DNA of 49,822 nucleotides from Rhodothermales bacterium (lineage in GTDB: Bacteria; Bacteroidota; Rhodothermia; Rhodothermales; DASSAV01), in NCBI GenBank assembly GCA_035699265.1, contig DASSAV010000055.1, forward strand, positions 1 to 49,822. Direction: 5' to 3'. Numbering within the stretch: the first letter of the stretch is position 1; every line of letters begins with the position of its first letter. Shown here in pieces: positions 1,400 through 41,646 of this stretch. The position numbers and the translations under genes are program-made. Under the pieces are notes generated by a model. That model did not search any database, was not told the origin of the DNA, and was given only the letters and a program-made list of their open reading frames with translations.

Positions 1400-2326
1400 T
1401 CAGGTCGCGTATTCTGCGGTGCGATCACGCCACTTTTGAACGAAGCCTGCAATCGTATTTTCGTCGTAGAAGTGACGCACGTACTTCGTGGAATAGATAC
1501 GTTCGCAGACTTCAGATGGAATGCGAATGTTATCTTTCACAAACGTATAGGCCTGGCGGTGTTTCTTGTGGGTCCCGACATTCGATTCTTTCACCTCAAT
1601 CGGCTGATCTATAGCCAGAAACTCGCGCAGCGCTCCGGAAAGAGTTCTTCGGAGATCCTCCTGCCGAAGAATCAGTACGTGCAGCCTGCCATGTTCCAGA
1701 ATGGTGTACCCCTTCCTGCAGTTGAAGGGTACCTGATATATGTCTACATCAAAAAACTTCTTAAACTCGATATCAAACCAGTTGCTGGCCAGGTCACGCT
1801 TCTCGTCGAACCTCGCGAACATGCTCTGAAGATACCGTAGGGTGTCCTGTTCTCGTGCTCTCCCATCCTCGTCCAGGAGATCCGGACAAAAGTAGTGGAT
1901 ATTCTGAAAGAAGGATGACAGGGTCCAACTGACGGGTTCTCGTACACCCGTGATGATATAAAGTGGCGCATCCGCTTGCCGCAGGAGCTTACTGCGGAGC
2001 AAATGTCCCGTCTGAATATGTTGCAGGGTCTTGGGCTCCAGGATCTTCTTCTGCCTGGCTAACACAAATCGCTGCTCGTCCCACTCTAAGTTGCCGGGTG
2101 ATAAGTAATGGATATGATAGACGGGGTTCAGCAGTTTGGCCGTTTGGAGCGACCGGTAAATTGTTGTCGAGCCGACTTTGCCCATCTGGTACACGAGGAT
2201 CGGCGGATGCTTCGAAAAGTCCTGTAGACCTATCCTGATCTTCTCGATCAAACGGTTGGACGTCACTTTCCTCAAACGCCTCCTGGCACCTCGAATGGTT
2301 CTGGTGACGACAGGTATCCTATCCAT
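1400..2326 (-). CDS. Sulfotransferase-like protein (paralogue A of a tandem pair)
   Basis: P-loop-like YQMGKVGSTT and downstream GVREPVSWTLSSF (an R-x-P...S 3'-PB-like motif). It aligns end to end with the next ORF starting from MDRIPVVTRT, which supports the ATG at 2326. The track ORF extends to a GTG at 2386. Confidence 0.6.
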   Translation of the reverse strand: MDRIPVVTRTIRGARRRLRKVTSNRLIEKIRIGLQDFSKHPPILVYQMGKVGSTTIYRSLQTAKLLNPVYHIHYLSPGNLEWDEQRFVLARQKKILEPKTLQHIQTGHLLRSKLLRQADAPLYIITGVREPVSWTLSSFFQNIHYFCPDLLDEDGRAREQDTLRYLQSMFARFDEKRDLASNWFDIEFKKFFDVDIYQVPFNCRKGYTILEHGRLHVLILRQEDLRRTLSGALREFLAIDQPIEVKESNVGTHKKHRQAYTFVKDNIRIPSEVCERIYSTKYVRHFYDENTIAGFVQKWRDRTAEYAT

Positions 2327-2401
2327 TGTGCATCGTCGTTTCGTTTCCAACCATGCAGCCTGCACACAGACGCCTCCTACGAACACGATTGGTCTGTTTT
2401 G

Positions 2402-3355
2402 CTAGACCGCTACCTCTACGGCACGATCCCGCCATTTTCCAACGAAGCCTGCGATTTCCTCGTCGTCGTAGAAATGACGCACGTACTTCGTGGAATAGAG
2501 TCGCTCACAAATCTCGGGAGAAATGCTGAGGTGGTTCTTTACAAACGAATAGGCATGTCCGTGCATCCTTTTGCTCCCAACGTTCGCTTCTTTGATCTCT
2601 ATTGGCTGGTCCGTGGGCAAGAACCCTCGGAGCACGCCAGGAAGGGTCTTTCGGAGATCCTCCTGCCGCAAAATCAGCACGTGTTGCCTGCCAGATTCAA
2701 GAATAGAGTAGCCTTTCTCTCGGTCAAAAGGCTTCTGGTATACGTCAATGCCCAGGGTATCCTTAAACTCGACGTCAAACCACTTGCTTGCCAGTTCAAC
2801 GTCGAACCAATCGGTGGCCGGATTGCGCTTATCGCCGAGCCTCGCAAACATCCCTTGCAAATACTCGAGAGTTTCCTGTTCCCGCGCCGTACCATCCTCA
2901 TCGAGTAGCTCGGGGCAGAAATAATGGACGTGTTGAAAGAATCTCGACAGCGCCCAACTAACAGGTTCTCGCACACCTGTTACGATGTAGAGCGGTACGT
3001 CGGGCTTACGCCGAAGCTTCTCATGGAGCAGCCGCCCGGTATGGAGGTGATGTAAAGCCTTAGGATCCACGGCGGTCTCCTTCCTGACCACGGCAAAACG
3101 CTGAATTTCCTGCTCCAGGTGAATCGGAGACAAAAAGTGGACGTGGTAGACAGGATTCCTCAAACGGGCCCTTTGAAGCGCCTCGTATATCGACATTGAG
3201 CCAACCTTGCCCATCTGATATACAAGGATCGGCGGGCGCTTCACAAAATCCTGTAGGTACATCTGGATTTGCTCGACCAGTTGATCGGGCACTATTTCCT
3301 TTAGCCGTTTTCCGGCGCGCCGAACGGTCCGCGAGATGACAGGTACGTTGTTCAT
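2402..3355 (-). CDS. Sulfotransferase-like protein (paralogue B of a tandem pair)
   Basis: YQMGKVGSMS and GVREPVSWALSRF. Homology to the paralogue begins at MNNVPVISRT (ATG at 3355). The track ORF extends to a TTG at 3520 with a hydrophobic stretch, so the start is uncertain. Confidence 0.6.
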   Translation of the reverse strand: MNNVPVISRTVRRAGKRLKEIVPDQLVEQIQMYLQDFVKRPPILVYQMGKVGSMSIYEALQRARLRNPVYHVHFLSPIHLEQEIQRFAVVRKETAVDPKALHHLHTGRLLHEKLRRKPDVPLYIVTGVREPVSWALSRFFQHVHYFCPELLDEDGTAREQETLEYLQGMFARLGDKRNPATDWFDVELASKWFDVEFKDTLGIDVYQKPFDREKGYSILESGRQHVLILRQEDLRKTLPGVLRGFLPTDQPIEIKEANVGSKRMHGHAYSFVKNHLSISPEICERLYSTKYVRHFYDDEEIAGFVGKWRDRAVEVAV

Positions 3356-3630: not shown

Positions 3631-4674
3631 TCAAGCGTTCTGGGGCACCAGCTTGCCCATGCGCTGCCGCAGCTTGTTCCGATGCGGCCTCGATCTGGTT
3701 TTCGCAGTTAACCAGAGTCGTCCCAGTCTCCACTTCATCAGCCAAACTGCGCTCGCGAAAGATCCGCGCCACCCGCTCACTCGCAGATAGTACACCCAGC
3801 GCAGCTCGGCTGCACCAACCCGATCTCTACCGTCAGTGACCCTGAGGTGCCACGGCTTCGAGGCTCCGCAGAAATGAAAAATATGTGGCTGGGTCAGGAT
3901 CTCTTCTCGCATCGACCCCAACTCCTCTCGGAATGCGGCATCTCTTCCGGTTCTCTTGGAAGTATCGAGGCGCCAGAGTCTGGGCGAGACGTTCCACCTC
4001 TCTTCGAGCATCCCCCATCGCTCTGCCAGTACCACGTTGAGCCCATCCTGGTCGGCAAACTGGAGATCCTCGCGGAACGCGTTCACGTACTGGACCACCT
4101 TCTCACGCACGCACTCCTCGCGCCAGCGCTTCAGGTTCATCACCAGCACTCCAGAATTCAGGTACGGCTGGTCGGCTGAGAGCCCGAGGTCAGCATACTG
4201 GCGAATGCCATACCTGGAAGAAACGTACGGCACACCAAAGTCCCGCACAGCCAGTACGGCCTGGTCCCCCATTTCTTCTTCCCACAATTGAGCGAGGTCT
4301 GCCTCTACGATCAGATCACAATCCAGGTAAATCGCTTTGTTCAACCCTTCCGGCACGACGTCCGGAATCAAAAGACGGAGATAAGCGGCTGGGCTGATCC
4401 ACTTGCAACCCTCGAGGCCGGAGAGAACCGAGGCATCCGGCCTGACCCATTCGATTTGCAAAGCGACGCGCTCGGATCGGCACACATGGTACAACCGTGC
4501 CCGGTTTCGCTCACTGATTCCGCCGTCCAGAACGTAAAGGCGGATCTCGCTACCGCTGCGAACATGAGCCAGTGCAGAGTACAGTGTCACCGCTAGCGGC
4601 ATCGCGTACGTATCGTCCGCTGCGCACACAAGGACAATCGGACCATGTTGTCTTGCTCCGTTCTCCCCGCTCAT
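3631..4674 (-). CDS. GT8-family glycosyltransferase (LPS/EPS galactosyl- or glucosyltransferase-like)
   Basis: IVLVCAADDTYAMPLAVTLYS, AIYLDCDLIVEADLAQLW (DxD), YLNSGVLVMNLKRWRE. It ends in a basic amphipathic C-terminal tail. Confidence 0.75.
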   Translation of the reverse strand: MSGENGARQHGPIVLVCAADDTYAMPLAVTLYSALAHVRSGSEIRLYVLDGGISERNRARLYHVCRSERVALQIEWVRPDASVLSGLEGCKWISPAAYLRLLIPDVVPEGLNKAIYLDCDLIVEADLAQLWEEEMGDQAVLAVRDFGVPYVSSRYGIRQYADLGLSADQPYLNSGVLVMNLKRWREECVREKVVQYVNAFREDLQFADQDGLNVVLAERWGMLEERWNVSPRLWRLDTSKRTGRDAAFREELGSMREEILTQPHIFHFCGASKPWHLRVTDGRDRVGAAELRWVYYLRVSGWRGSFASAVWLMKWRLGRLWLTAKTRSRPHRNKLRQRMGKLVPQNA

Positions 4675-4909: not shown

Positions 4910-6001
4910 ATGAACCAACTCCACGTGACTTTCTTCTATCCGGATCACGAGGATCTCGTGCGGTTTCGCACCTTCGATTTGAATAGCAGCGAGCCCTGGC
5001 TTGGTGCCAAGAGCCGCCGCCGCGCATGGGTAGTGCAGACGTATCTACGTCTCCGGCGAGCAGGATACGATGTTTCCATCTCCGCTGACATTCCGAACCA
5101 CGGGATTCTGGTCGTCCTGGCCGAAGGCGACTTCAAGCAAGCATTTGTCAGACAATTCAGACGGCCGAACCGGCAGCTTTTCGTGCTGAGCATACGTGCC
5201 GACGTAGAAGGTTTCCGGACCCCCTTTGCAGATGCGGAAATCGTTCAGAACGGCAGGTTTGCCGATGACCAGCGCGTCTTCTTCATTCCTCACTGGCCCC
5301 AGCCCTGCCTTATTCCGCGCGATGCCGCACGCGGTGACACTATCCGCACCATTTCATTCAAAGGGCGTCCGGGCAGCCTGCGCCAGGAGTTCCACTCTGA
5401 ACGTTTCGTGCGTTTTCTAAACGAGAACGACCTGGTGCTCGATGAGGCAGTACCCAGAGACGGAGTGCAACCGGCTTGGCATAATTACTCCACAACGGAC
5501 CTGGTACTGGCCGTACGCCCCGACTGGAGCAGCAGCAAGCTCCGGTGTGAGAAGCCTGCCTCAAAGTTGGTCAACGCCTGGCATGCAGGCGCCCCTGCCC
5601 TGGTCGGACCCGAATACGCCTTCCGTGAGCTGCGTCGGTCCAGCCTGGACTTTATTGAAGTGGACTCGGTAGACGAAACAATGGCTGCGATTTCGAAGCT
5701 GACAAGCCAGCCCCGGCTCTACACAGCCATGGTCGAGAATGGACGTATTCGGGCTCGCGAGTTTACACCTGCACGGATCACAGCACAATGGGCCGAGGTC
5801 CTTTTCGAGAGACTTCCGGAGATTGCATCCCAGAGAGGCTTTAAGTTATCGAGGACCATCCCGCTGTATGCGCGGAGCGTGTTAAACGTTCTGATGATGC
5901 CTCCTACAACTCTGGAACTGCGAAAGCAGGCAGGCCAACTGCTACGTCAAACGACAAAACGAATACGATCCCGCAGGATACCGAGAAATATGCCCGCCTG
6001 A
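4910..6001 (+). CDS. Hypothetical protein, possibly a GT-B-like glycosyltransferase C-terminal domain
   Basis: 363-aa ORF with coding-like composition. KPASKLVNAWHAGAPALVGPEYAFREL resembles the acceptor/UDP-binding helix region of GT1-type enzymes, but I saw no canonical ExxxxxxxE motif. Confidence 0.4.
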   Translation: MNQLHVTFFYPDHEDLVRFRTFDLNSSEPWLGAKSRRRAWVVQTYLRLRRAGYDVSISADIPNHGILVVLAEGDFKQAFVRQFRRPNRQLFVLSIRADVEGFRTPFADAEIVQNGRFADDQRVFFIPHWPQPCLIPRDAARGDTIRTISFKGRPGSLRQEFHSERFVRFLNENDLVLDEAVPRDGVQPAWHNYSTTDLVLAVRPDWSSSKLRCEKPASKLVNAWHAGAPALVGPEYAFRELRRSSLDFIEVDSVDETMAAISKLTSQPRLYTAMVENGRIRAREFTPARITAQWAEVLFERLPEIASQRGFKLSRTIPLYARSVLNVLMMPPTTLELRKQAGQLLRQTTKRIRSRRIPRNMPA

Positions 6002-6060
6002 TCGTGCATCCGTTCCCAACGGCGTGATCAAGAGAGTGGAACCCCGGAGAGGATTTGCGC

Positions 6061-7098
6061 ATGCCGACGCCCATCTCGCTCATTCTATGTACCCATAACC
6101 GCGCCGAGGACTTACGGCAGACACTGGCTTCGATAGCTGGGCTCGAAATCCCCGAGGATCTGTCCGTTGAACTCATCCTGGTTAACAACGGATCGGATGA
6201 TCATACCCTCGAGGTGATGCAAGCGTTCAGCATGCCCTGCATGTCTGTCCGAATCGTACAGGAACCCCGCCCCGGTAAAGCGAGGGCATGCAACGCAGGT
6301 ATCCGCGCCTCAAGCGGAAGAATCCTCCTCTTCACTGACGATGACGTGCGGGTTCCCCGCCAATGGATTTCATCCATGTGCGAACCGATCCTGAAAGGCA
6401 CTGCAGATGCCGTCGCGGGCGAGGTCATCCTGGCGCATCACCTGGTGAAACCCTGGATGCGGATGCCGAGAGCGACTGCCCCACCAGGCATAACGAAAGC
6501 GCTGTCGAAAGATCACCCCCAACGTCTGGTCGGAGCTAGCATGTCATTCGCCAGGCACGTGCTGGAGACGGTTCCATCCTTTGATACCGAACTCGGACCC
6601 GGCGCCCTGGGCTTTGAAGAGGAGACGCTTTTTTCTCTTCAACTGCTACAGGCCGGCTTTACGATCACGTCGGCGTTTGATTCACCCGTTGAGCATCATC
6701 TCGACGCTACGCGCCTGTCCCGTGCGACCTTTCTCAGCATAGCAGAAAACCTGGGGCGGTCGACAGGCTACATCGACTACCACTGGCGCCATTTACATAA
6801 GGGCACGTGGAGGGAAAGCAGCCTGCGTCTCTGCCTCTCGCTGGCCAAAGGGTACTTTTTGCTGCTGTTCGCCCATGTGGCAAGCCGGATCGAGTGGAGA
6901 TACTTGTTCCCGCAGGGGGTTGACTGCCGGGAAACGCTGGCTTTGCGTCGATTGTATGCAATCAAGCAAGTTATGCGTGAGCGGAAACGGCCACACAACT
7001 ACGACCAGTATGGACTGGTCCATAGGTTCCACCCCGGTGCATTGGAGACCCCTTCATATACGTTGGAGAAACGCCTGCACACGCTTGCCAGCCGTTAG
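6061..7098 (+). CDS. GT2-family glycosyltransferase
   Basis: ISLILCTHNRAEDLRQTLASI, ELILVNNGSDDHT, LLFTDDDVRVPRQW (DxD). The ATG is at 6061 and the track starts at a TTG at 6055. Confidence 0.8.
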   Translation: MPTPISLILCTHNRAEDLRQTLASIAGLEIPEDLSVELILVNNGSDDHTLEVMQAFSMPCMSVRIVQEPRPGKARACNAGIRASSGRILLFTDDDVRVPRQWISSMCEPILKGTADAVAGEVILAHHLVKPWMRMPRATAPPGITKALSKDHPQRLVGASMSFARHVLETVPSFDTELGPGALGFEEETLFSLQLLQAGFTITSAFDSPVEHHLDATRLSRATFLSIAENLGRSTGYIDYHWRHLHKGTWRESSLRLCLSLAKGYFLLLFAHVASRIEWRYLFPQGVDCRETLALRRLYAIKQVMRERKRPHNYDQYGLVHRFHPGALETPSYTLEKRLHTLASR

Positions 7099-7142: not shown

Positions 7143-10100
7143 TCAGCCATTGACGTCCACGCGAACTGCCCCACCAGCATTGCCCTGAGCGACACGCCGT
7201 TTAGCTGCAATGGCAGAGGTATATGACTCATTCGCCGGATAGATCAGAGTACAGGGTCGCTCGACGAATATTTTGTATCCCTGGCCCGGATACATCATCC
7301 CGATGCCGTTGATGTTAGAGGCGGGATAGTACACGTCCCCTTCAGAATTGGTAGCCAGGACAAGTGCCGAAGAAATGCTACTCAAGGCTTCTTCAATGTC
7401 CATGTCCCAGCTACGAAGGTAAGGAACCCAATTCCAACCCTTTTGAAGCGACACCGACATCTGCTGAGAGGCAAGAGCTTTACCAGGAATCGACAACGTG
7501 AGTTCACGCTTTGCATACACCATGTATGCTTTTCCTGGGCTCCAGAATTCTAACTGTGCAATCCCCTGCTCAGGGCTGAAGACGCGCCCATCGGCATCTT
7601 TGACGATGACGATGTCGGCGAGCACGGGGCTGAGTATGGCCCGGATGCTGGTGTCTGCCGGCACAGTAGATAGCGAAACGACGTTCCATCCTGGAGTGAG
7701 TGTCAGATGGCTGACGGAAACCCCTTTCGGGAGCACGTCGAAGCTCCGCAATTCGCTCGAAATCGTGTTTCCCTGACGGTCGGTGAACTTGATCGAACAT
7801 CGATAGCTCAATGCCACCTGTGGCGTCCAGGTGCAGCTAAATGGCACCGTTTCATCCTCACACAGCTTGTTGCCGTCGGCCCATCCTTCCATTCTGACGA
7901 TGGATCCGTCATCCGTAGTCGTGCCGGAGAACGTTATCGCCTCACCTAGACTGTATGCGGCGTGGTTTATGGGACTGGCGAACGCTTTGACCCGTATTGT
8001 ACCTCCGGCACCCGAGTCATCCGAATGGTCGACGAGGGAGTTCCAGTCTCCCTTAGGCCACATCATCGCCCCCCAGGCCGCCATGGAGTCCAGCGTGGAC
8101 TTCGTCACCCCCAGTCCGTCCAGGGCGGGTATCACCCGGTAGAGGTAGTCGGCATAGTAAGCCCCGGGCCACCATTTGCCGCCCGTGTAGGGCGTAGGCT
8201 GATATGAAGCACTCGTAACCCCACTCATCGAGCCATCCTCGCGGTAGGTCCAATCACTCGGAGGATGCCGCATGGTCTTTTTGATCCACGTCTGCATTAC
8301 GGGCGTGAGCACACGGCCTTCCAGGGGATAACCCAGTGATTGAAGCGGCCGGTGCTTGGACGGTGCGTCGCCGAAGAACCACGTCGGCGTTATGTGCCGC
8401 CAGTACCATCCTTTCAAGTCACCGTCATCCACTCCGTTCTCGTTGTTGTCCTGTTGTAATAGCTTCACGTAGCTAGCCAGGTAGCGATATGGCTCCTCCT
8501 TCGACCATGGCCCGTGCAGGAACTTGAACTGGTACTTCCAATCAACCGGGCGAAGGGAGATGCCTGCCCGGTTACCTGCATTTAGAATCAACTGAAGCTG
8601 ATACCAACTCGTCGTGAAGTATGTCCACTGAAGGGCGCTTCCGTGTGGCCAGGTACGGCTCAGCATCCCGGTCGCCAGGATATGAGGCGCCACGTCGAAT
8701 ACGGATCGGTACTCCCCAACCCAACTCCGCTTCTCGCCGTATTTGTACATTAAGGGAGCCATATCCTCCAGGCCATAGGAAGTCATGATCTCCCATTGCT
8801 TTACCACAAACCACTGGCCGAGCCCCAGTGTATGATCCGCGATGGCTTTATCTTCGGCAATAGATCTGCCGTAACCCCCAAAGTAGTCGTCCTGCCCCGT
8901 CGTTTGACGGAATTTGAGAAAGCTGCTCCCCCACTCTTCAATGGCTTTCAGCGCGCTCCCGTCATGCTTGGCCTGCTCTGCGCGGCCGTCGATGGTGCGG
9001 AGTAGATTTTTGTAGGAGGAAATAACGTCGCTTGATGTAAAGTCAGTTCTCCATACGTCCTTGGGATGCTCACGGGGGAGCCATTCGTTCCAGTCCGGCA
9101 GTTCAATTGAGATAGGGAGTTGACGCAAGTTGAGTGTACTGTCTACATCGACGGCGCTCTGCGTGATGCCGTTCGGGAACAAGTAGGGGAACATCTCTTC
9201 GTCATTCTCGAGCACCCAGCCCAGACCTGCACCGGCCGCCCAGCAATGCTGCGGCAAGTCATCAAGTGGTCTCCCCTGAATGCAATCCCCCATGGTAGGA
9301 ATTTTGCGGGTTGGACCAGGTTGGTAGGGGGGGTCCCAGGGAGTACCCACGGCAGGAAAGTCCAACGAGCGAATGTATGCCGCTACCTGGTTCGCCTGCG
9401 TAGCAGACAGGCCGTGAAATTCGCTCCGTGCGACGATAGCCTCATTGGAGAAGTTGTAGAACTTGAGATCACGTCCATTGCTGGCATGACAATCTGAACA
9501 CGACGCTCGAATGGCCGGTCCGCCAGGAAACTCTACCAGCGGTGCCGTCTCGTATACCCTTTTTCCCTCACTGATCTGTCCTGCGGAGCCGTAGCCGGCC
9601 GGAGCCGTCCACCGCGAGAAGTCTTCGTAGACCAGGTTATCCGTCACACGCCCTGCCCCGGCGGCGTCGATAGCAGCTTCCGTCAGATCGCCCGCGTAGC
9701 CTCCAGGCAAGAAATTGAAGTTGAGAACACGAAAACCACTGCTAAAACCTTCTGTCCCGTTGAAATAGAAGTCGATCTTGTTCGCACCGTTCCTCACACC
9801 GGCGGCGCGTATGGTAAAACGTACCGTTTCAAATCCCCCGCCGATGCCCTCCAGTTGGACTTCGTTCCTGGCGCAGATAGCTGTCTTGTTATCCACTTTT
9901 ACCCACTCCCCACCATTCACACGCACCCACATCTTGGGACTGCCTGCGGGCGATGACTTGTCCCCATATCTCAAGCCTTCACTCGCCCGGCTCCCGTCTC
10001 CATACTTGTAAGAAGGTTCGTGAACCTGCAGCCAGAGACGGTCGACCTTGCCGTCGCTATTGTCAACGTTCACCGTAATGGACTGGGTCGCAGTTCCTGT

Positions 10101-10628: not shown

Positions 10629-11543
10629 TTACCAGTTCTCATCCGCCTCATATCCAAGTTTCACGAGGAGGCCGCCATACTCGTCCTTAAAATACCGGAC
10701 GTGTTCCGGCGTGAAGTGGTTCTTCCAATCTCCGGGAATGCCCCGGCGATAATGGCTCGTGACGTCTTCCTGGCCACGCCGACGGCCGCCTGCCATCTTT
10801 GAGAAGTTCTTCTTCTGGATGATGCCCTCCAGGGCAGAAGCACTGATGCGTGACAGCCTGCGCCGCGGCACGGGAAACATGGGCACCTGGCCGGGCATAA
10901 AGCGGCGGCCCCTCTGGTTCAACCGGTTCATTTTCAGGCTCGCCATCCCGATCCATCTGCGAACCCCTTCAGGTTCGTCTTGATCGAGTAAATCGAGGAA
11001 CTGTGCCACCCGCGTAAAACCGCGCACAGGATCCATTGTGAGTTCCTCCATTTTCAACTCCAGGATATGCTCCTGGCCATAATCCCAAGTGAACATCTCC
11101 TTAAGGTTCGGCCGGCTAAACTCCATCTCCAGAAGCAGCCCTTCCTCCTTCGGAACGTTCTGCAGCGCCGTTCTATGAGCCTCGAGTTCGGGCCAATTCC
11201 TGGTCGGATGGCTATAGAGATGGGAAAAGAAAGCGGAAACGATCACGTCCCTCGGATCGCGCACGACGTGAAAACCCCGATATACGCGCAAGCCATTTAC
11301 ATAGCTGCGGTTGGCATTCGTGTAGGCTAGAAAGTCTGTTCGATGATGATCGACAAACCCCTCCAGTGACCCCATGCCCTCAAAATGGATGGGTTGATGC
11401 ACGATATTGAACTTAATCCCCATATGGAAACAGATTTCCATGAGGACACCGTCGACCCATCCGGTTGCGCATTTGTGATGCCCGAAAAAAGCGCGCAGTG
11501 GAAAATCGCTTCCGATATTCCGGCGCCCCATCTCCTCCTCCAT
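10629..11543 (-). CDS. Sulfotransferase (Sulfotransfer_1-like)
   Basis: FFGHHKCATG (5'-PSB-like), FHVVRDPRDVIVSAFFSH (3'-PB) and the classic RRGIPGDWKNHFT motif. Alternative ATG starts lie at 11531 and 11603, and a GTG at 11651. Confidence 0.8.
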   Translation of the reverse strand: MEEEMGRRNIGSDFPLRAFFGHHKCATGWVDGVLMEICFHMGIKFNIVHQPIHFEGMGSLEGFVDHHRTDFLAYTNANRSYVNGLRVYRGFHVVRDPRDVIVSAFFSHLYSHPTRNWPELEAHRTALQNVPKEEGLLLEMEFSRPNLKEMFTWDYGQEHILELKMEELTMDPVRGFTRVAQFLDLLDQDEPEGVRRWIGMASLKMNRLNQRGRRFMPGQVPMFPVPRRRLSRISASALEGIIQKKNFSKMAGGRRRGQEDVTSHYRRGIPGDWKNHFTPEHVRYFKDEYGGLLVKLGYEADENW

Positions 11544-34032: not shown

Positions 34033-35829
34033 TTATGCGGGTTGGAATTGGAGGGAATGGTACTTCCACAGTTGTCCGCGCCGGGCCAGCAGCTCCTCGT
34101 ACGTCCCCTGCTCCACCACGCGACCGCGTTCCAGGACCACCACCCAATCCGCGTGCTCTACAGTAGAAAGGCGGTGTGCTATTGCGATCACTGTGCGCCC
34201 CTCCATCAACCGCTCGAGTGACTGCTGCACGAGCCTTTCAGAGATACTGTCGAGCGCGCTCGTCGCCTCGTCCAGGATCAGGATCTCCGGATCGCGCAAC
34301 AGAGCCCGTGCGATGGCTATTCGCTGACGCTGACCACCGGAGAGCCGAACGCCCTGATCCCCCAGCACTGTCTCGAAACCGTCCGGCATCTCTTCGATGA
34401 AGTCCAGCGCATTGGCCCGTTCGGCCGCCGCCCGAACATGCGCATCGCTTACCGCGGGCACGCCATACGCGATATTCGCCCGCACCGTGTCGTTAAAGAC
34501 GAAGGCGGCTTGACTCACGACCGCTATCTTTTGTCGAAGCGACGCCACCTTGAATTCGCGGAGATCAATTCCGTCCATCAGAATGCGGCCTGCGGACGGA
34601 TCGAAAAAGCGAGGAATCAGATCGACGAGCGTAGACTTGCCTGCGCCGGATGCGCCGATCAGGGCCGTCGTCTTGCCCCGTTCGATCTTCAGGCTGATGT
34701 CCTCCAGCACGGGCTCCCCGGGCTCGTATGCAAACCAGATATGCTCAAAGACCAGGCTGTTGCGAAACGCAGGCGTATGTATCGATCCATCTGCCAGGTA
34801 CGGCTTATCCTCACGCCGCAGCAGATTTGCGATGCTTGAAAGGGCCGCTCCCATTGAAGCCCATTCTCCTCGCAAGCCGTTCAACTGCTGCACGACCGGC
34901 ATCATGCGGAACAGCGCAAAGAGAAATGCGAGGAGAAGTGCCATGTCCAGCGCACCCGCCAGCACATAGAATTGTACCGCCAGAACGATTACGGCGATGA
35001 GGACCGTACCGACCACCGCTTGTGTGAGCGGCGAAACCAGAAGCGCACGGTTTGTCGTCTCTATGACAGCACTTGCGATGTGGGACGTCGCCTGATTCAG
35101 GCGCTCGCGCTCGAAGGTTTGCATGTTGAAAGCCGTCACCGTGCGAATCCCACTAATGAATTCGGACGCGTGCGAAACGAAGGTGGCGTGCGCGCGCGTA
35201 ACCTTTTCTGAACTGATTCGGATGAGCGTAATCAGCCGCGTCAGGGCGAGCGACATCAGTCCGAAGCTGACGACCACGATCAGCGAAAGCTGCCAGGACA
35301 CGACAATTACGAACACCCCATATACCACCAAAAAGAAGCCGCGGGTAATCAGCGTTACCGTGACGTTGAGTGAATGGCTGATACGTGCCAGTTCAGTCGT
35401 CAGGCTATTAATGAGCTCTCCCGAACGTGTCTTGGAAAAGAAGCGGAGCGACACTGCCTGCAGTTGATCGATCACCCGCATTCGGAGATCCTCCACAACG
35501 AGCGCACGGCTCTTCATGCCGTACACGGAAGACAAATAGCCCAGGATGGCGCGGAGCCACGTACACACGAGGATAAAACCGCAGATACGGTACATGCGTC
35601 GTACCTGCGACAGTCCCGACCCGAGCATCCAATGATCTACGAAATGCCACCCCGTCGCGATCTGTTGGGCTGACGGATCGGCTATGTTCTTTAGAAAAGG
35701 AATGAGCAGACCGATGCTGAAGCCTTCGAAAACGGCCGCGAGCAGGGACAGAAAGACGGTAATCACGATCAGGTGTGCGTACTTCCTGAAGCTCTCCAGC
35801 AGAATTCGATTTTCGTTACGTATCAGCAT
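34033..35829 (-). CDS. ABC exporter with fused permease and ATPase (MsbA/PglK-like type I exporter)
   Basis: Six N-terminal hydrophobic helices. Walker A GASGAGKST, signature LSGGQRQRIAIARALL, Walker B ILILDEATSALD. Confidence 0.9.
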   Translation of the reverse strand: MLIRNENRILLESFRKYAHLIVITVFLSLLAAVFEGFSIGLLIPFLKNIADPSAQQIATGWHFVDHWMLGSGLSQVRRMYRICGFILVCTWLRAILGYLSSVYGMKSRALVVEDLRMRVIDQLQAVSLRFFSKTRSGELINSLTTELARISHSLNVTVTLITRGFFLVVYGVFVIVVSWQLSLIVVVSFGLMSLALTRLITLIRISSEKVTRAHATFVSHASEFISGIRTVTAFNMQTFERERLNQATSHIASAVIETTNRALLVSPLTQAVVGTVLIAVIVLAVQFYVLAGALDMALLLAFLFALFRMMPVVQQLNGLRGEWASMGAALSSIANLLRREDKPYLADGSIHTPAFRNSLVFEHIWFAYEPGEPVLEDISLKIERGKTTALIGASGAGKSTLVDLIPRFFDPSAGRILMDGIDLREFKVASLRQKIAVVSQAAFVFNDTVRANIAYGVPAVSDAHVRAAAERANALDFIEEMPDGFETVLGDQGVRLSGGQRQRIAIARALLRDPEILILDEATSALDSISERLVQQSLERLMEGRTVIAIAHRLSTVEHADWVVVLERGRVVEQGTYEELLARRGQLWKYHSLQFQPA

Positions 35830-35934: not shown

Positions 35935-36405
35935 TTATCTGTCGGCTAGCGTTGCGATACGCAGAACCAGCAAAGCCAGAGATGCAGCTGATCCCGCCCA
36001 CGTGGCTACACTCATCAATCCTATTCTGGTCTTGGTCTCGACCGAGAGCACATCACCGTCCATCAGATCTGGATAGTCTTTCCTTCCCACCAGGATATTC
36101 TCGAACTTGCCGCTGTAAATCTCTCTCCGGCTGCCTTCCGCGCCCCGGTAGATGTGAACGATGGCATTCTGCCTCACGCCGCGAGAAGAAGTACTGACCC
36201 CGCTCAGGTGGACGACCGTGAGGAGTTCGAGCAGATCTGTATCCTGTTCCACCTTCCACACCCCGGGAGACCCGACTGCCCCCAGTACGAAGATTGTTTT
36301 TGTGGGGTACCCGGGCCTGGCATGCGTGAATGCGGATTCTTGCGCGGCGGAAGTAGAGACGAAAGAGAGCAATCCAAGAATTACGAGTGTCGGTCGTAAG
36401 CACAT
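35935..36405 (-). CDS. Small polysaccharide-export-like protein: signal peptide, a single SLBB-like domain and a C-terminal hydrophobic helix
   Basis: MCLRPTLVILGLLSFVSTSAAQE; IFVLGAVGSPGVWKVEQDTDLLELL...IVHIYRG...DYPDLMDGDVLSV (SLBB pattern); C-terminal GLMSVATWAGSAASLALLVLRIA. Confidence 0.5.
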   Translation of the reverse strand: MCLRPTLVILGLLSFVSTSAAQESAFTHARPGYPTKTIFVLGAVGSPGVWKVEQDTDLLELLTVVHLSGVSTSSRGVRQNAIVHIYRGAEGSRREIYSGKFENILVGRKDYPDLMDGDVLSVETKTRIGLMSVATWAGSAASLALLVLRIATLADR

Positions 36406-36473: not shown

Positions 36474-38852
36474 TCATGACACGGCCTGCTGGTAGCCATA
36501 GGTATACTTGCTGTATCCGTACCCGAAACCATATCGGTAACCACCTGCTTTTTGCGCATCGAAACGGTTGAATATGGTACCGGCTATAGGCACACCGACC
36601 GCCGCCAGCATCTTCTTCGTGACGTCTAGCGCGTGTACATCCGTCCTGTGAGCCGAAACGACCATGACGGTTGCGTCGCACAATGGCGCCAGCAATACCG
36701 CATCGGTCACGGCCAGCACCGGAGGCGAATCGACTATGACGAGATCGTAGGCGGCGCGCATCTGCTCCAGAAGCTCGAACATTTTGTTCGACCCGATCAC
36801 CTCGGCCGGCGGAGAAGTCGCACTGCCCGCCGGGATCAGCCACAGGTTCCTTACGATGGTAGGCTGCGGCTCCACACCCTCGCGGCGCCCGGAAAGCATC
36901 TCTGCCAGGCCGCAACCCGGCGAGACGTTAAGAAGCCGATGCGCAGTCGGGCGGCGCATGTCGGCATCTATCAACAGAGTGCGATGCCCGAATTGCGCCG
37001 CAGCTATCGCCAGATTAAGAGCCGTAACCGTTTTGCCGTCCGACATTTCGGGACTCGTCACGAGCAACACTTGTGTAGGCAGCCCCGTCTGCCCGGCACC
37101 GATGTTTGTCCGAACCAGGCGGTAACTCTCAGAAATCGGTGACCACGGATCGTGTAAGGTGATGAGCCGTGTGCTGAGTGTCTTGCCATCCTTCTCGACC
37201 TCATCCTTACCCATGAAATGGGCTGCGATGGCCTTATCCATGGACGGAATGACCCCGATGAGGTTGTAGCCATTTTGCTCCAGTTCGTCCGGCTGTTGGA
37301 GCCGGTGGCTCATCGCCTTCTTGGCAAAGGCCAAGGCAACCCCGATGCCCAGGCCGAGCAGAAGGCCCAGCATAAGGTTCTGCTTCAAATCCGGACGCAC
37401 CGGGAGCGTCGGAACGATGGCGCTGCGGACGATCTTTGCACTGCCCAATTCCGCCTCCTCGGCAATCATTGTCTTCTGCAGTTCTTGGAGGAACGTCATG
37501 TACCACTGTTCGGCGATGGTGCGCTGCTGCTCTAACTGCTTCGTCTCGATGATCTGCCTGGGAATGCTCTGAAGGCTCCCCCTGTAACCTCCAAGCCTGC
37601 CGTCCAGGGCCGCCACCTGGTTCTGTAGCTCTCTAACGGTAAGGTTCTTTTCGAGAACCTTGTTCTTCAACTGGACCACGTACGTCATCTGGCTGGCACT
37701 TGCCTCCCCTAGTTCCGACGTGGAAGTTTGCGAAACGAGCTGCTGGGTTAACGCCTCGCGTTGTCCCTTGAAGAATTGGATCTTCTTGTTAATGTCTGAA
37801 AGGGCCTGAATGCTCGACTCTTTACCTTTGATGTTCGGGTTCACCGCGTAATATTCTCCTGCCTGCACCTCCAGCGTTGAAATTTGCTCATTCAAGGCAT
37901 TGATCCGGCTCTCAAGGGAAGCCGTTTCCCGTGTGGTTGTGAGTTGGGCGACCAGTCCGGGCTCGACGCGCTCCAGCTCACGCTTCAGGATCTCTAGAGA
38001 GTGCTTTTCCTGGCCCAACTGGAACGCTGCATTATCTCGCTGCGCTTTCAATTCCACAAAATCCGAAACCAGCCGCTCCCCATCGGTTCCAAGCGTGACG
38101 ATATGCTTTTCCTGGGCGTAGTCTTCCCATTGGCCTTCGATGTCATCCAGTTCACGACGTCGTTCGGCCACCTGCTGCTGTAGAAAAGCCTTCTTGGCGG
38201 CGATGCTGGCGCGGCTGGATTCCCGGTTGAACTTGACGTACTCCTCCGCATATTCGTTGGCGATCAGCGCAGCCTCCTCAGGGGTCGTGCTCTCCGCCAG
38301 GATCTCGATCATGTCCTGCGTGGCGGATGGCCTGAATTGAACCTGCTCAAGAAGACGCGCGGTTATGGGCTGCACGTGAAGGGAGTCCCCGGCAGTGCCG
38401 TTCAGGATCGGAAAACGCTCGGCTGTGCCCACAGCCGCGGCAGTGCTCTGGATGCGCTGTGCAACGCGGTTCGCCAGCTCTGCGGACTGCTGGAGTATGC
38501 CCAGTTCATTCGCAAGGGTGTGCGGCTCCGAACTTCCCACAACGCCGGGCGCCAGGCTGGGACCCGTATTTATGAAAACGACACTGCGCGCCTGGTACGT
38601 GGGCGCAATAGTTTTCGTGTACACCACCATCGCCGCCGTAATCAGCAGGCAGCTCAGGAGAATGATCCACTTCCCCTGATGCAGGGCGTCCAGTACGTCC
38701 GTAAGGTTGATCTTGGCGTCGTCGGGCGGTCCCGCCATGCCGGGGCGCCGCATGCTGCCGTTTACACGCCGAGCCGATGCGATACTACCGTTAGCATAAC
38801 GGGTTATGTGTCTGGGCTGATTCATATTCGTCATTGCTGCTCTGGTTCTCAC
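36474..38852 (-). CDS. Polysaccharide co-polymerase / tyrosine autokinase (PCP-2a, GumC/ExoP/Wzc-like)
   Basis: Wzz-like N-terminus with a TM helix (WIILLSCLLITAAMVVY) and a long coiled-coil periplasmic region. Walker A SPEMSDGKT, A' LLIDADMRRP, B LVIVDSPPV. Tyr-rich tail GGYRYGFGYGYSKYTYGYQQ (36477..36545). Confidence 0.9.
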   Translation of the reverse strand: MRTRAAMTNMNQPRHITRYANGSIASARRVNGSMRRPGMAGPPDDAKINLTDVLDALHQGKWIILLSCLLITAAMVVYTKTIAPTYQARSVVFINTGPSLAPGVVGSSEPHTLANELGILQQSAELANRVAQRIQSTAAAVGTAERFPILNGTAGDSLHVQPITARLLEQVQFRPSATQDMIEILAESTTPEEAALIANEYAEEYVKFNRESSRASIAAKKAFLQQQVAERRRELDDIEGQWEDYAQEKHIVTLGTDGERLVSDFVELKAQRDNAAFQLGQEKHSLEILKRELERVEPGLVAQLTTTRETASLESRINALNEQISTLEVQAGEYYAVNPNIKGKESSIQALSDINKKIQFFKGQREALTQQLVSQTSTSELGEASASQMTYVVQLKNKVLEKNLTVRELQNQVAALDGRLGGYRGSLQSIPRQIIETKQLEQQRTIAEQWYMTFLQELQKTMIAEEAELGSAKIVRSAIVPTLPVRPDLKQNLMLGLLLGLGIGVALAFAKKAMSHRLQQPDELEQNGYNLIGVIPSMDKAIAAHFMGKDEVEKDGKTLSTRLITLHDPWSPISESYRLVRTNIGAGQTGLPTQVLLVTSPEMSDGKTVTALNLAIAAAQFGHRTLLIDADMRRPTAHRLLNVSPGCGLAEMLSGRREGVEPQPTIVRNLWLIPAGSATSPPAEVIGSNKMFELLEQMRAAYDLVIVDSPPVLAVTDAVLLAPLCDATVMVVSAHRTDVHALDVTKKMLAAVGVPIAGTIFNRFDAQKAGGYRYGFGYGYSKYTYGYQQAVS

Positions 38853-38903: not shown

Positions 38904-40409
38904 TTAGTAGGCCCCCTCTCCCTTTACGATGACGGGTATGGAACGCGCCATGATGTAGGCGTCCAACCAGAAATTCCAGTTCTGCACATAATGCACGTCT
39001 AACGTGACCCGGTCTTCGAAGCTCAGATGGTTGCGCCCGGATACCTGCCAGAGCCCAGTTATTCCTGGAGGATTTTGTAGAATAACGGACTCCATATCCC
39101 CCATGCAGGCCAACTCCTCGAACAGATAGGCCCGCGGCCCGACGAGGCTCATCTCGCCCCGCAGCACATTCCACAACTGGGGCAGTTCGTCTAGACTGTA
39201 CCTCCGCAGCATTCTCCCGACAGGCGTTACACGGGGATCGTCCCGGAGCTTGCGGAAGGTTTGGAACTCCTCTCTCAGTTCTGCATCCCGGCCGAGTATG
39301 TCCTGTAACCTGACCGTGGCGTCCGAATACATGCTTCGAAATTTCAACACGCTGAAAACACGCCCACCCTTGCCGATCCGGAGTTGTCGAAATAGAACGG
39401 GACCCGAAGAATCGAGCTTGATGAGAATCGAGATGGCCAGCAGCAGGGGCGACAGGAAAACGACCGCGAGCAAGGCACAGACGTAATCGCTCATTGCCTT
39501 GGCCGACCGCATGGCGTGCTTTCTGCCATTGTGCTGAACGTCGTACCCCCGTATGCCGATAGCAGACCCCGCCGTCGTCCAGAGGGGCTGTGATTCCGCC
39601 GCTGCGGGAACGACCAGCACACGCTCAAAGAACTTTGCATAACGGCCAACGAGCTTCTGCAACTGGCGGGGCGGCATTTCCGGCATGGCCACGATGAGGT
39701 AGGGGATCTTGTAGCGCCGTGCGAGCACGGGCGCATACTCCATATTCCTGTGAACGGGTACCCCGCCAATCTCCCTTTCCATTTCCGTGCTGTCGAGCAG
39801 TACGACAGGCTTCAGGCCTAGCTCAGGCCAACGGTTCAGCGTCTTGAGAATAGCTCTTCCAGCCCGCTCTCGTCCGAGCACGACGCAGGGATAGCCCCAC
39901 CAGTCAGCTTGACCACACACCATGCGCAGGCCAATCCTCGCGAGCGTAACGAACACGACGGTCGCCCCCCAGGCCGTCGCGAGCAGAATGAGCGGCTGTG
40001 CTGCCCCGAGCGTGAGGAGTGGAATGCCAAAAGATGCGTACACCAGCGTCGTTACACGGGCGGTCCTTCGCATGTCCGCCGCAGGATGAAGGATGACGTC
40101 CCCCACCATGTGAACCGCCGCATAGCATATCTCCAGGAGAATGATGACAGGCAAGAAGGAAGACGCCCGCACGAGGCGTTCCCCCGGCACGATCAAGTCG
40201 ACTCCCGAGAGGCACATCCACGTCGCGGCGAGTGCCGCAGCGTCGGAAACCAGAAAACTTGCGACCGTCCACGCGCGTGAGGGGACGCCCGGCAACACCA
40301 ATCCGCCACTTCTGGGGACCGTCGGCACTAATACCGGGCCCTGAAATTGAGAAGCGGTGGCGGCGTGCATTCCTGGTGACTGATTAAAGTGAACTTCCGT
40401 CTCCCTCAT
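38904..40409 (-). CDS. Polyprenyl-phosphate glycosyl-1-phosphate transferase (WbaP/EpsB-type initiating sugar transferase)
   Basis: N-terminal TM segments. SPLLLAISILIKLDSSGPVLFRQLRIGKGGRVFSVLKFRSMY ... DELPQLWNVLRGEMSLVGPRA. An alternative start lies at 40370. Confidence 0.9.
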   Translation of the reverse strand: MRETEVHFNQSPGMHAATASQFQGPVLVPTVPRSGGLVLPGVPSRAWTVASFLVSDAAALAATWMCLSGVDLIVPGERLVRASSFLPVIILLEICYAAVHMVGDVILHPAADMRRTARVTTLVYASFGIPLLTLGAAQPLILLATAWGATVVFVTLARIGLRMVCGQADWWGYPCVVLGRERAGRAILKTLNRWPELGLKPVVLLDSTEMEREIGGVPVHRNMEYAPVLARRYKIPYLIVAMPEMPPRQLQKLVGRYAKFFERVLVVPAAAESQPLWTTAGSAIGIRGYDVQHNGRKHAMRSAKAMSDYVCALLAVVFLSPLLLAISILIKLDSSGPVLFRQLRIGKGGRVFSVLKFRSMYSDATVRLQDILGRDAELREEFQTFRKLRDDPRVTPVGRMLRRYSLDELPQLWNVLRGEMSLVGPRAYLFEELACMGDMESVILQNPPGITGLWQVSGRNHLSFEDRVTLDVHYVQNWNFWLDAYIMARSIPVIVKGEGAY

Positions 40410-41646
40410 AACTCCCCCCCACTATGCCTTCCGTCAATTTCCGAGATGTAAACTCTTCGTACTTCCTCTGAAGCAGACCGGTAAAAGCCTGCCGAAAGCA
40501 TTCCTTGGAGAATCGCTCGGCATTATATCGAATCGTATCCGGCTCGAAATAGCTGCCCATGCTTTCGAACCTGTAAATAGCATCCTTGAGGCTATCTATT
40601 GTCTGTTCGTAGAAAAAGACACCCGTCGTGTCGCGAATCACGGTTTCGAGTACCCCTCCCTTTCCATACGCGATCACGGGTGTGCCACAGGCCTGTGCCT
40701 CAAGAGGAACGATTCCAAAGTCTTCCTCTGCGGCAAAAACAAAAGCCTTCGCTCTACGCAGATAATGTTTTGCGGCTTCAAAAGGCTGATACCCGAGTAT
40801 CGTAACGTTGGGCGTGGCTTTTGCCGCAATGGACTTGAAATCAGGCCCGTCGCCAATTACGATGAGCTCCTTGTCAGGCATTCCGGCGAACGCCTCTACG
40901 ATCAGGTCCACCCGCTTGTAAGGCACGAGCCGCGACATCGTCACGTAGTAGTTCTCCTTCTCGAGGCAGAGCGTGAAGGCATCGGTGTCCACCGGCGGGT
41001 AGATGACCTCGGCCCGGCGCCGGTAGGTCTTCCAGATTCGCCGGGCTACGTGGCGGGAATTGGCGACGAATACGTCTACTCGATTCGCGCTAACTGCATC
41101 GAAGAGGCGCAAATAGTGCAGGACGGCCCGCGCCAGGTGCCCCTTCGCGCCATGCTCGAGCTTTCCGTCGCGCACGTACTGGAAATGCAGGTCCCACGCA
41201 TACCGGACCGGGCTGTGGACGTAGCTGATGTGCAACTGCTCGGCAGTGGTGAGCACACCTTTCGCTACGACGTAGCTGGACGAAATGACAACGTCGTAGT
41301 CGCTCAGGTCGAACTGTTCAATGGCGTAGGGCGCGAAAGGCAGGTAATAGCGATAATTCTTATGCGCGAACGGCAAGCGCTGTATAAAAGAGGTTTGTAC
41401 AGGCTTGTCCCGCAGAAATGCCCGTTGGTCGGGTGACAGAAAATCGATGAGACTATAGAGGTCGGCATCCGGGCACGCGGCTAGTATTTCGCCCAATACA
41501 TGCTCAGCCCCCCCGTAAACCGGAAGCCAGTCGTGCACGACGCCAATGCGTGTAGCCGACAGCGGCTGCAGGCCTTTATCCGCCGGCTTGCCGTTTACCA
41601 GTTCCCTAAACTCTGCTGTTCGCCCAGCATAGTTTTCCGAAGTCAT
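40384..41646 (-). CDS. GT4 glycosyltransferase (first gene of the long minus-strand train)
   Basis: RIGVVHDWLPVYGGAEHVLGEI and EDFGIVPLEAQACGTPVIAYGKGGVLETV. Confidence 0.85.
   Translation of the reverse strand: MTSENYAGRTAEFRELVNGKPADKGLQPLSATRIGVVHDWLPVYGGAEHVLGEILAACPDADLYSLIDFLSPDQRAFLRDKPVQTSFIQRLPFAHKNYRYYLPFAPYAIEQFDLSDYDVVISSSYVVAKGVLTTAEQLHISYVHSPVRYAWDLHFQYVRDGKLEHGAKGHLARAVLHYLRLFDAVSANRVDVFVANSRHVARRIWKTYRRRAEVIYPPVDTDAFTLCLEKENYYVTMSRLVPYKRVDLIVEAFAGMPDKELIVIGDGPDFKSIAAKATPNVTILGYQPFEAAKHYLRRAKAFVFAAEEDFGIVPLEAQACGTPVIAYGKGGVLETVIRDTTGVFFYEQTIDSLKDAIYRFESMGSYFEPDTIRYNAERFSKECFRQAFTGLLQRKYEEFTSRKLTEGIVGGSYEGDGSSL

Follow-up and report, generated by a model that had tools for sequence, protein, structure and literature searches.

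A sulfotransferase-rich, predicted Wzy-type polysaccharide locus in a metagenome-assembled Rhodothermales genome

The stretch of DNA considered here, called the window throughout, is the complete 49,822-nt contig DASSAV010000055.1 of a metagenome-assembled genome (MAG) that carries the NCBI label "MAG TPA: Rhodothermales bacterium", and at least ~41.6 kb of it belongs to a locus in which nine sulfotransferase candidates, named here ST1 to ST9, are interspersed with genes for polysaccharide assembly. We read the window as containing the greater part of a locus for the Wzy-dependent synthesis of a sulfated heteropolysaccharide, i.e., a capsule or an exopolysaccharide (EPS), of this Rhodothermales bacterium, and we give this reading a probability of about 72%. 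As judged from the sequences, eight of the sulfotransferase genes are credible and one, that of ST4, is atypical; because ST4 lacks the Arg or Lys of the P-loop, nine is the upper bound and eight the safer count. The locus is thus predicted to be of a known kind, a Wzy-type polysaccharide locus with embedded sulfotransferases, that is unusually rich in the latter, as the bacterial sulfated-polysaccharide clusters that have been defined or proposed contain one to three sulfotransferases (PMC8205485, PMC11641403, PMC7356697).

An initial annotation of the window had put forward nine open reading frames (ORFs) as sulfotransferase-like, and all nine are found on the minus strand exactly where it placed them: ST1 (1400-2326), ST2 (2402-3355), ST3 (10629-11543), ST4 (15627-16349), ST5 (20659-21618), ST6 (25530-26471), ST7 (28879-29922), ST8 (29930-30748), and ST9 (30752-31750). 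The motifs that it quoted as resembling the 5'-phosphosulfate-binding (5'-PSB) loop are exact, namely GKVGSTT in ST1, GKVGSMS in ST2, GRSGST in ST5, GCPRSGTT in ST6, GANRSGTT in ST7, GAPRSGTT in ST8, and GASRSGTT in ST9, and the two that it left unspelled are the atypical ones, HKCATGW in ST3 and GFQGSGNS in ST4. This loop contains a basic residue in eight candidates (Arg in ST5-ST9, Lys in ST1, ST2, and ST3) and a Gly in ST4. The companion claim, that every ORF also has a downstream R-[DEN]-P...S motif like that of the 3'-phosphate-binding (3'-PB) site, holds in this strict form for six of the nine (ST1, ST2, ST3, ST4, ST7, and ST9) but not for ST5, ST6, and ST8, which have the variants K-N-P, R-D-G, and R-D-A, respectively; the Arg...Ser pair itself occurs in eight candidates, with K...S in ST5.

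Searches against Pfam bore out the sulfotransferase assignment for six of the nine ORFs (ST3 and ST5-ST9), which lie above the gathering cut-offs of Sulfotransfer_1, Sulfotransfer_3, or both, with E-values from 7e-12 to 5e-37, while no curated sulfotransferase profile reaches its gathering cut-off in ST1, ST2, and ST4. The outcome that the initial annotation had named as refuting it, ORFs without a match to sulfotransferase models or folds, is thus not what was observed. When 22 other proteins of the locus were scanned, neither the P-loop motif nor the strict form of the 3'-PB motif was found in any of them. The possibility that the P-loops arose by chance was rejected because six ORFs exceed curated cut-offs and the motif occurs in no other protein of the locus. 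Hydrophobic segments and signal peptides were sought in all nine candidates, and none was found.

Among the six ORFs that exceed these cut-offs, ST7 (Sulfotransfer_3, E 2.2e-36; RDP...S) and ST9 (Sulfotransfer_3/_1, E 4.9e-37) are paralogs with 45% identity, located on either side of ST8 (Sulfotransfer_3/_1, E 7.3e-16; RDA...S). ST9 matches the tyrosylprotein sulfotransferases TPST1/2 and the CurM sulfotransferase among the PDB sequences, at ~1e-10, and it is already named "sulfotransferase" in the public record (HET6566635.1), as the exporter described below is already named "HepA" by NCBI. ST5 matches Sulfotransfer_3 and Sulfotransfer_1 with E-values of 7.8e-15 and 2.8e-9 (KNP...S), and ST6 matches the same two families (E 1.6e-21; RDG...S). 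ST3 is a Sulfotransfer_1-type protein (E 6.6e-12) whose P-loop departs from P-K-S-G-T-T-W, the usual consensus of the cytosolic sulfotransferases (SULTs). Its stretch F-F-G-H-H-K-C-A-T-G-W is identical in the 57% ortholog of one related contig (L016, 2-874), and for this reason the unusual loop is regarded as conserved and not as a sequence error. The PDB sequences matched by ST3 are those of Teg14 and of cytosolic SULTs, the latter through its C-terminal RRGIPGDWKNHF stretch, which holds the motif RRGxxGDWKNHF (RxGxxGDWKNxF).

ST1 and ST2 are tandem paralogs, 60-64% identical, whose Pfam match above cut-off is limited to PF10364, "NKWYS, putative capsular polysaccharide synthesis protein" (E 1.4e-21 and 3.6e-24, respectively). 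They can be placed near sulfotransferase family 2 because of their K-x-G-S-T-T loop, their R-E-P...S motif, and the weak Sulfotransfer_2 matches of their relatives, seen in 10 of 28 NKWYS proteins (best E 3e-5), with Sulfotransfer_1 matches in 4 of the 28. In the alignment of these 28 members the stretch Y-Q-M-G-K-V-x-S is invariant and G27 and T30 are retained in at least 90%; K25, S28, H48, R104, and S112 are all invariant, the Ser lying eight residues past the Arg and the His being placed after the second strand. The predicted structure of ST1, with a predicted local distance difference test score (pLDDT) of 91.8, has the PSB-like stretch after strand 1, the His after strand 2, and the Arg/Ser motif at the end of strand 3 or the start of the next helix, and this is the order expected of a 5'-PSB loop, a catalytic base, and a 3'-PB motif. 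Moreover, NCBI names some NKWYS homologs "sulfotransferase family 2 domain-containing protein", and in the NKWYS profile the R-D-P...S stretch is aligned with the 3'-PB region of heparan sulfate 3-O-sulfotransferase, though with an E-value of only 0.3. Single-sequence and profile searches with ST1 against the PDB gave nothing significant. ST1 and ST2 are probably family-2-like sulfotransferases, and the placement of the NKWYS proteins beside sulfotransferase family 2 is worth following up.

ST4 belongs to a large family that is lacking from the curated profile libraries. No significant match was obtained with ST4 in Pfam, in NCBIfam, or among the PDB sequences (as a single sequence or as a profile), and a profile search of 1.84 billion representatives returned 3327 relatives at E ≤1e-3, with 1055 at ≤1e-30. 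The structural model (pLDDT 94.7) was compared with known structures by Foldseek, and its 28 best matches are all sulfotransferases, among them SULT7A1, LGS1, SOT18, and TPST, with modest E-values (from 3e-3), template modeling (TM) scores of 0.31-0.44, and most probabilities above 0.9. In the model, the R...S motif follows a strand and begins a helix. Within the clade to which ST4 belongs, 25 columns are invariant in 36 sequences, including H88, R108, P110, and S116, and three of these residues, H88, R108, and S116, are placed as would suit a catalytic His and the Arg and Ser of a 3'-PB motif. In 60 diverse members of the wider family the P-loop mostly reads E-G-[FY]-P-R-S-[AG]-N-[TS]-F, whose PRS[AG]N[TS] part is close to the bacterial G-x-P-R-S-G-T-T loop, and Sulfotransfer_1 is the sole recurrent Pfam match, found weakly in 8 of the 60 (best E 8.3e-5). 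Profile-profile comparison of the family with the five canonical paralogs and with the NKWYS family gave probabilities below 6% and aligned only the 3'-PB stretch, the reference alignment being shallow (five sequences). We regard ST4 as a probable sulfotransferase-fold protein, according to its model, whose sulfotransferase activity is putative and uncertain.

The genomic settings of the ST4 family differ with distance from the window. Distant relatives, which come mostly from soil metagenomes, lie beside genes for polysaccharide co-polymerases (PCPs) and Bac_transf proteins, and a limited local profile search detected no canonical sulfotransferases near them. Of 14 loci that hold a close relative and span at least 9 kb, 13 were found with an iterated local profile to carry another one to three Sulfotransfer_3-type genes no more than 10 kb away. 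The family, including the clade without the P-loop Arg, is worth curating as a sulfotransferase-like family missed by the current profile libraries.

Exact-protein look-ups, together with a metagenome scan with the ST4 family, gathered 85 loci, which were viewed over 10 kb on each side. The gene order of the window is shared by six other contigs of Rhodothermales type, including GCA_041690215.1, GCA_026003555.1, GCA_041391505.1, and a contig of 2.44 Mb; two of the three NCBI assemblies are named Rhodothermales or Rhodothermaceae by their source. The common order is (ST3)-GT4f-ST6-GT1e-Wzy-(GT4d)-ST5-(AsnB)-GT4c-GT4b-ST4, where GT denotes the glycosyltransferases described below, and the orthologs have 37-78% amino-acid identity: GT4b 49-65% in the six relatives, GT4c 50-66%, AsnB 72-78%, ST5 58-60%, Wzy 37-50%, GT1e 46-57%, and ST6 55-60%. 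The same core in related contigs means that sulfotransferase-rich Wzy loci recur among these relatives and are not the oddity of one contig. Next after the core comes a gene for a Big_7 protein in several relatives, and genes for a PCP and a Bac_transf protein in one. The window has, in excess of the core of its relatives, the NKWYS pair and the ST7-ST8-ST9 block, and no NKWYS homolog was found in the relative loci fetched. Read in this way, the central part of the locus was inherited as a core in common with the relatives, and duplications (ST1/ST2 and ST7/ST9) raise the sulfotransferase count.

The genes among which the sulfotransferases lie largely match what the initial annotation had listed, and all of those named in this and the next paragraph are on the minus strand except where noted. 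About thirteen glycosyltransferase-like genes had been claimed, and 13 are found, two of them weak. From right to left, they comprise GT4h (40384-41646; Glycos_transf_1, E 3.6e-27), which is the first gene of a long co-directional run, GT61 (32806-33990; Glyco_transf_61, E 1.8e-23), GT47 of the exostosin type (31752-32750; Exostosin_GT47, E 2.8e-13), GT4g (27601-28698; Glycos_transf_1, E 1.5e-25), GT4f (26435-27781; Glycos_transf_1, E 2.7e-31), the GT1-like GT1e (24254-25522; Glyco_trans_1_4, 27.7 bits versus a cut-off of 27), GT4d (21625-22911; Glyco_transf_4, E 4e-27), GT4c (17521-18750; Glycos_transf_1, E 1.8e-32), GT4b (16349-17524; Glycos_transf_1, E 1.5e-28), whose stop overlaps the start of ST4 by one base, GT4a (13190-14392, plus strand; Glycos_transf_1, E 1.5e-36), a GT2 (6055-7098, plus strand; Glycos_transf_2, E 2.1e-24), a 363-aa protein that is possibly GT1-like (4910-6001, plus strand; Glyco_trans_1_2, E 0.008, below cut-off), and a GT8 (3631-4674; Glyco_transf_8, E 2.5e-41), which NCBI names "glycosyltransferase family 8 protein". 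The longest ORF of GT4f overlaps GT4g by 181 nt, and its true start is probably downstream.

Within the 49.8 kb, the initiating polyprenyl-phosphate hexose-1-phosphate transferase of the WbaP type, the Wzy, the co-polymerase, and the exporter are each encoded once. The first (38904-40409; Bac_transf, E 1.3e-61) scores 408.3 bits with TIGR03022, whose cut-off is 403, and is also above the cut-off of TIGR03025. The Wzy-type polymerase, of the O-antigen ligase/polymerase family (22857-24257), has ten hydrophobic segments and reaches 34.6 bits with Wzy_C versus a cut-off of 31.7. The co-polymerase is a PCP-2a protein with a C-terminal bacterial tyrosine kinase (BY-kinase), i.e., a Wzc-like protein (36474-38852; Wzz, GNVR, and P-loop kinase; TIGR01007, 148 bits versus 108), and its C-terminus is rich in Tyr (...YRYGFGYGYSKYTYGY...). 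Two of the earlier claims carry caveats. The ATP-binding cassette (ABC) exporter is present (34033-35829), but it is a fused HepA/MsbA-type protein with transmembrane and nucleotide-binding domains (ABC_membrane and ABC_tran), not a capsule-type Wzm/Wzt pair; it scores 818.7 bits with NF045513 (HepA_fam_ABC), above the equivalog cut-off of 725, over residues 4-595 of 598, and is a candidate flippase or exporter. An ABC-transporter-dependent capsule pathway (Wzm/Wzt, KpsMT) was rejected because the exporter is fused and a Wzy is present. Similarly, the claimed SLBB export protein exists as a 156-aa secreted protein (35935-36405) with a signal-like N-terminus and a hydrophobic segment at residues 130-148, but its SLBB match is weak and below cut-off (E=0.012). 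It is a candidate for a minimal outer-membrane polysaccharide export (OPX)-like component, Wza being far larger. The exact sequence of this small protein is found in Logan assemblies only, with no NCBI entry. Finally, an AsnB-type glutamine amidotransferase (18687-20588; Asn_synthase, E 3e-93) passes TIGR01536 and has its best match with the XrtA/PEP-CTERM amidotransferase model, below the cut-off of that model; it is probably a sugar-modifying amidotransferase.

With respect to the extent of the locus, a start at 1400, as first proposed, was not borne out. A same-strand gene for a second AsnB-like amidotransferase (1-1317, minus strand; GATase_7, E 1.3e-22; Asn_synthase, E 1e-20), its 3' part cut off, runs off the left contig end, so that the locus is truncated by the assembly and continues beyond the window; the length of at least ~41.6 kb compares with 40.2 kb if the locus began at 1400. 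From 41646 down to 14461 there is one co-directional run of 22 genes, many of them overlapping and none more than 180 nt from the next; the last gene of the run encodes an NTP_transf_5 protein of an uncharacterized nucleotidyltransferase family (14461-15555, minus strand; PF14907, E 1.1e-68). In G+C content, 16-28 kb (59-62%) comes close to the housekeeping flank at 42-48 kb (61-62%), and the segments 1-16 kb and 28-42 kb are lower (54-58%). Most of the core shared in synteny with the relatives (15.6-29 kb of the window) lies in the stretch of higher G+C, and since the outer arms are lower in G+C than core and flank, they may be later additions to the locus. The right border lies at ~42 kb, and the genes beyond it have no evident link to polysaccharide synthesis.

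These components can be assembled into a tentative pathway. The WbaP-type transferase would load a hexose-1-phosphate onto undecaprenyl phosphate at the inner membrane face, and up to 13 cytoplasmic glycosyltransferases (GT4, GT2, GT8, GT47, and GT61) would extend it into a large or branched repeat unit, which one or two AsnB-like amidotransferases could modify. Eight to nine soluble cytoplasmic sulfotransferases of four sequence groups would then transfer sulfate from 3'-phosphoadenosine 5'-phosphosulfate (PAPS) to different positions of the lipid-linked unit; sulfation is placed in the cytoplasm because PAPS is available there and because the candidates have neither a signal peptide nor a membrane segment. 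Either the HepA/MsbA-type ABC exporter or a Wzx whose gene lies past the contig end would flip the unit, which Wzy would polymerize under the control of the Wzc-like co-polymerase and tyrosine kinase. The polymer would pass outward, possibly via the small SLBB-like protein, and PAPS and sugar nucleotides would be supplied by genes elsewhere in the genome. The dense and heterogeneous sulfation predicted by the initial annotation is read from gene counts, a way of reading that is reasonable because in synechan, discussed below, the gene numbers match the sugars and sulfates per unit.

Several points weigh against this reading of the window. The organism is uncultured and known as a MAG. As the initial annotation had stated, no genes for PAPS supply or nucleotide-sugar synthesis are present in any of the window ORFs scanned, and PAPS-synthesis genes along with sulfotransferases have been proposed as a hallmark of sulfated-polysaccharide clusters (PMC11641403). 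A Wzx flippase (Polysacc_synt/MOP) is not found among the window ORFs of at least 150 aa, nor is a Poly_export/Wza domain found in the window, which has no convincing Wza-type OPX; since the left contig end truncates the locus, a Wzx gene could be located beyond the window. Fourteen glycosyl transfers exceed a typical Wzy repeat unit, so the genes may serve more than one glycan, and 14 sugars with 8-9 sulfates in one repeat unit would be extreme. It is along these lines that the window could be a composite of at least two glycan pathways, e.g., an EPS and an O-antigen-like or cell-surface glycan, with the nine sulfotransferase-like genes and the 13 glycosyltransferases shared out among the products and no single polymer being densely sulfated. 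The left arm (1-14.4 kb) is of mixed orientation, with four strand switches and gaps of 235-595 nt, versus the single co-directional run from 14.4 to 41.6 kb; the differences in G+C described above, the restriction of what the relatives share to the central core and the pair of Big_7 and 363-aa proteins, the lack of NKWYS homologs in the fetched loci, and the continuation of the locus past the contig end all go in the same direction. Nevertheless, the 49.8 kb hold the initiating transferase, the Wzy, the co-polymerase, and the exporter in a single copy each, the Big_7 gene directly follows the core in relatives and so links the left arm to it, and a view of 10 kb on each side does not imply that the outer genes are absent from the relatives. 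We consider a composite, or else partial redundancy among the genes, unlikely, though it is a genuine alternative.

Less improbable, though still doubtful, is a reading in which ST4, perhaps together with the NKWYS pair, does not belong to the PAPS-dependent sulfotransferases; ST4 would then have lost catalysis or have a changed donor, and the true count would be six to eight. In the clade of the window's ST4 the loop reads D-G-F-Q-G-S-G-N-S-F, with a Gly at the site that is occupied by an Arg or Lys in the wider family and in all known sulfotransferases; the protein has no Pfam match, its Foldseek matches stay at E ~3e-3 and TM ~0.4, it is tightly coupled to GT4b/GT4c and Wzy, and the limited search of the distant-relative loci detected no canonical sulfotransferase. 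Such an ST4 might, e.g., serve the neighboring GT4 pair as a scaffold or as a partner in specificity. For the NKWYS pair, the best relevant Foldseek match of the ST1 model in the PDB is heparan sulfate 6-O-sulfotransferase at rank 4 with E 0.33, nothing in that search being significant, and profile-profile comparison (hhalign) with the canonical paralogs is likewise without significance, at a probability below 6% and with only the 3'-PB stretch aligned, against a shallow reference of five sequences. Conversely, the ST4 clade is strongly conserved at its 25 invariant columns, His, Arg, Pro, and Ser included, and Sulfotransfer_1 is the only Pfam family that recurs in its wider family; the NKWYS proteins have an invariant K-V-x-S P-loop with H48, R104, and S112, weak Sulfotransfer_2 matches in 10 of 28, and the family 2 names given by NCBI to some homologs. 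Far less probable than either of these is that the sulfotransferases act on a glycolipid, a small metabolite, or a protein and are merely co-located with glycan genes. Acceptor specificity is not readable from sequence, and the solved structures nearest to ST9 belong to tyrosylprotein and polyketide (CurM) sulfotransferases, and those nearest to ST3 to glycopeptide (Teg14) and small-molecule enzymes. The genes, however, are intermingled gene by gene with those of the glycosyltransferases and Wzy within a single tight run, the intermingling is kept in the six relatives, no polyketide, peptide, or lipid biosynthesis genes are found in the window, and a similar arrangement in the xss cluster leads to a sulfated polysaccharide (PMC8205485). 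The reading of a Wzy-dependent locus for a sulfated heteropolysaccharide is thus the one that we prefer. Its stronger form, a heparin-like, very highly sulfated polysaccharide with at least five distinct sulfate positions per unit, made here and in the syntenic relatives across Rhodothermales by four sulfotransferase families, one of them the large ST4 family acting in this clade without P-loop Arg, seems to us improbable to about the same degree as a composite.

The remaining genes of the locus and its surroundings can be described briefly. The left arm includes a 1055-aa protein with a Big_7 Ig domain (7143-10310, minus strand; E 7e-12) and a hydrophobic anchor or signal at residues 4-22; its orthologs are 58% identical in relative L015 (15962-20347 for this protein and the 363-aa protein) and 36% identical in relative L097 (11493-15134), the counterpart in L097 having a weak type-IX secretion sorting domain (Por_Secre_tail). 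The 363-aa protein has a 65% ortholog in L015 and is a conserved neighbor of the Big_7 protein; PDB sequence searches with both were uninformative. The pair may be a secreted polysaccharide-processing or surface protein. A 234-aa predicted lipoprotein (11890-12594, minus strand) has a lipobox-like LAAC after a hydrophobic N-terminus and no family match. The AsnB-like protein at 1-1317 begins V-S-G-I-A-G, with Ser at the position of the catalytic Cys of class-II glutamine amidotransferases, and for this reason it is possibly not glutamine-dependent. Immediately beyond the right border are a 251-aa membrane protein without family match (42210-42965, minus strand) and a HerA/NurA-like pair of HAS-barrel and NurA-domain proteins (43024-45519, minus strand; HAS-barrel, E 1.3e-4, below cut-off), followed by further flanking genes for HemN, DUF192, CtaA, and a UbiA-type prenyltransferase. 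The longest NurA ORF has ~260 residues ahead of its domain and runs into the beginning of the divergently oriented HemN gene, and thus its true start is probably further downstream.

A tRNA scan of the window found none, and hence gave no hint of an integration site, and regulator, STAND, and two-component domains were found in none of the scanned window ORFs. Promoter and terminator scans of the window gave counts no better than those of shuffled sequence; they used the sigma-70 consensus, which is not expected to suit this phylum. In the public record the ST4 product has the locus tag VFG50_01575, and several other products of the contig have HET65666xx accessions. A Logan contig from run SRR25158421 (L001, 4956 nt) encodes an ST9 product identical to that of the window, in the gene order GT61-GT47-ST9-ST8 seen at 29.9-34 kb, and therefore the organism, or a very close relative, is present in another, independent public data set.

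What could be gained from such a locus follows from how few bacterial sulfated-polysaccharide pathways are genetically defined, the model case, synechan, having two sulfotransferases. The eight or nine genes are candidates for regiospecific polysaccharide sulfotransferases with which microbial heparin-like or carrageenan-like polymers might be made, and if the heparin-like reading were true, the Rhodothermales would be a non-cyanobacterial source of such enzymes, which might be heat-stable. The core is conserved across an order to which the cultivable and genetically tractable Rhodothermus belongs, and the locus could account, in a way open to testing, for the sulfate that has been reported from Rhodothermus EPS. 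As a predicted pathway, it also speaks against sulfated EPS as an essentially cyanobacterial trait. Overall, the sulfotransferase density and the conserved Rhodothermales core are notable and useful for enzyme discovery, and not very surprising.

The closest known system is the xss cluster of Synechocystis sp. PCC 6803, which has two sulfotransferases, eight glycosyltransferases, and Wzx/Wzy/PCP and makes synechan, a polymer with eight sugars and two sulfates per unit (PMC8205485). As in the present locus, its sulfotransferases come from different subfamilies and are placed among glycosyltransferases with a priming transferase, a Wzy, and a co-polymerase, and its PAPS supply is not encoded in the cluster; the xss OPX gene is located elsewhere in the Synechocystis genome (PMC8205485). 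The Rhodothermales locus, which belongs to another phylum and is known here from its genes, differs in having 8-9 sulfotransferase-like genes versus two and 13 glycosyltransferases versus eight, in having a HepA-type ABC exporter, with Wzx not found in the window, and in the lack of the XssQ (STAND) and XssR/XssS two-component regulators in the scanned window ORFs (PMC8205485, PMC13125312). Outside the cyanobacteria, sulfotransferase genes inside a polysaccharide cluster are also known from Vibrio sp. KMM 8419, where a sulfated capsule cluster that is Kps ABC-dependent has its own cysNDC and three sulfotransferases over 80 genes (PMC11641403), and from a putative cluster of Pontiella sulfatireligans with one sulfotransferase (PMC7356697); unlike these, the present locus is of the Wzy type, without PAPS genes, and far denser in sulfotransferases. 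The exporter resembles HepA of Anabaena, an ABC exporter required for the heterocyst envelope polysaccharide (equivalog NF045513, whose cut-off the ABC protein at 34033-35829 exceeds), but its host lies outside the cyanobacteria and forms no heterocysts. The ABC exporter of the window neighbors a Bac_transf gene, as hepA does hepC. The substrate of HepA-type exporters is not established, and the flippase role is put forward here as a candidate one. Among the papers found, none describes a genetically defined EPS locus of Rhodothermus marinus, and none pairs "sulfotransferase" with "Rhodothermales". The tentative link of the initial annotation to Rhodothermus stands at the level of the order, with the genus not assigned, and it is within this order that R. 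marinus produces an EPS with a sulfate-ester infrared band (PMC9590192) and that R. marinus strains have accessory genomes differing in glycosyl- and sulfotransferases, from which differing sulfation patterns have been suggested (bioRxiv 10.1101/2021.05.17.444423).

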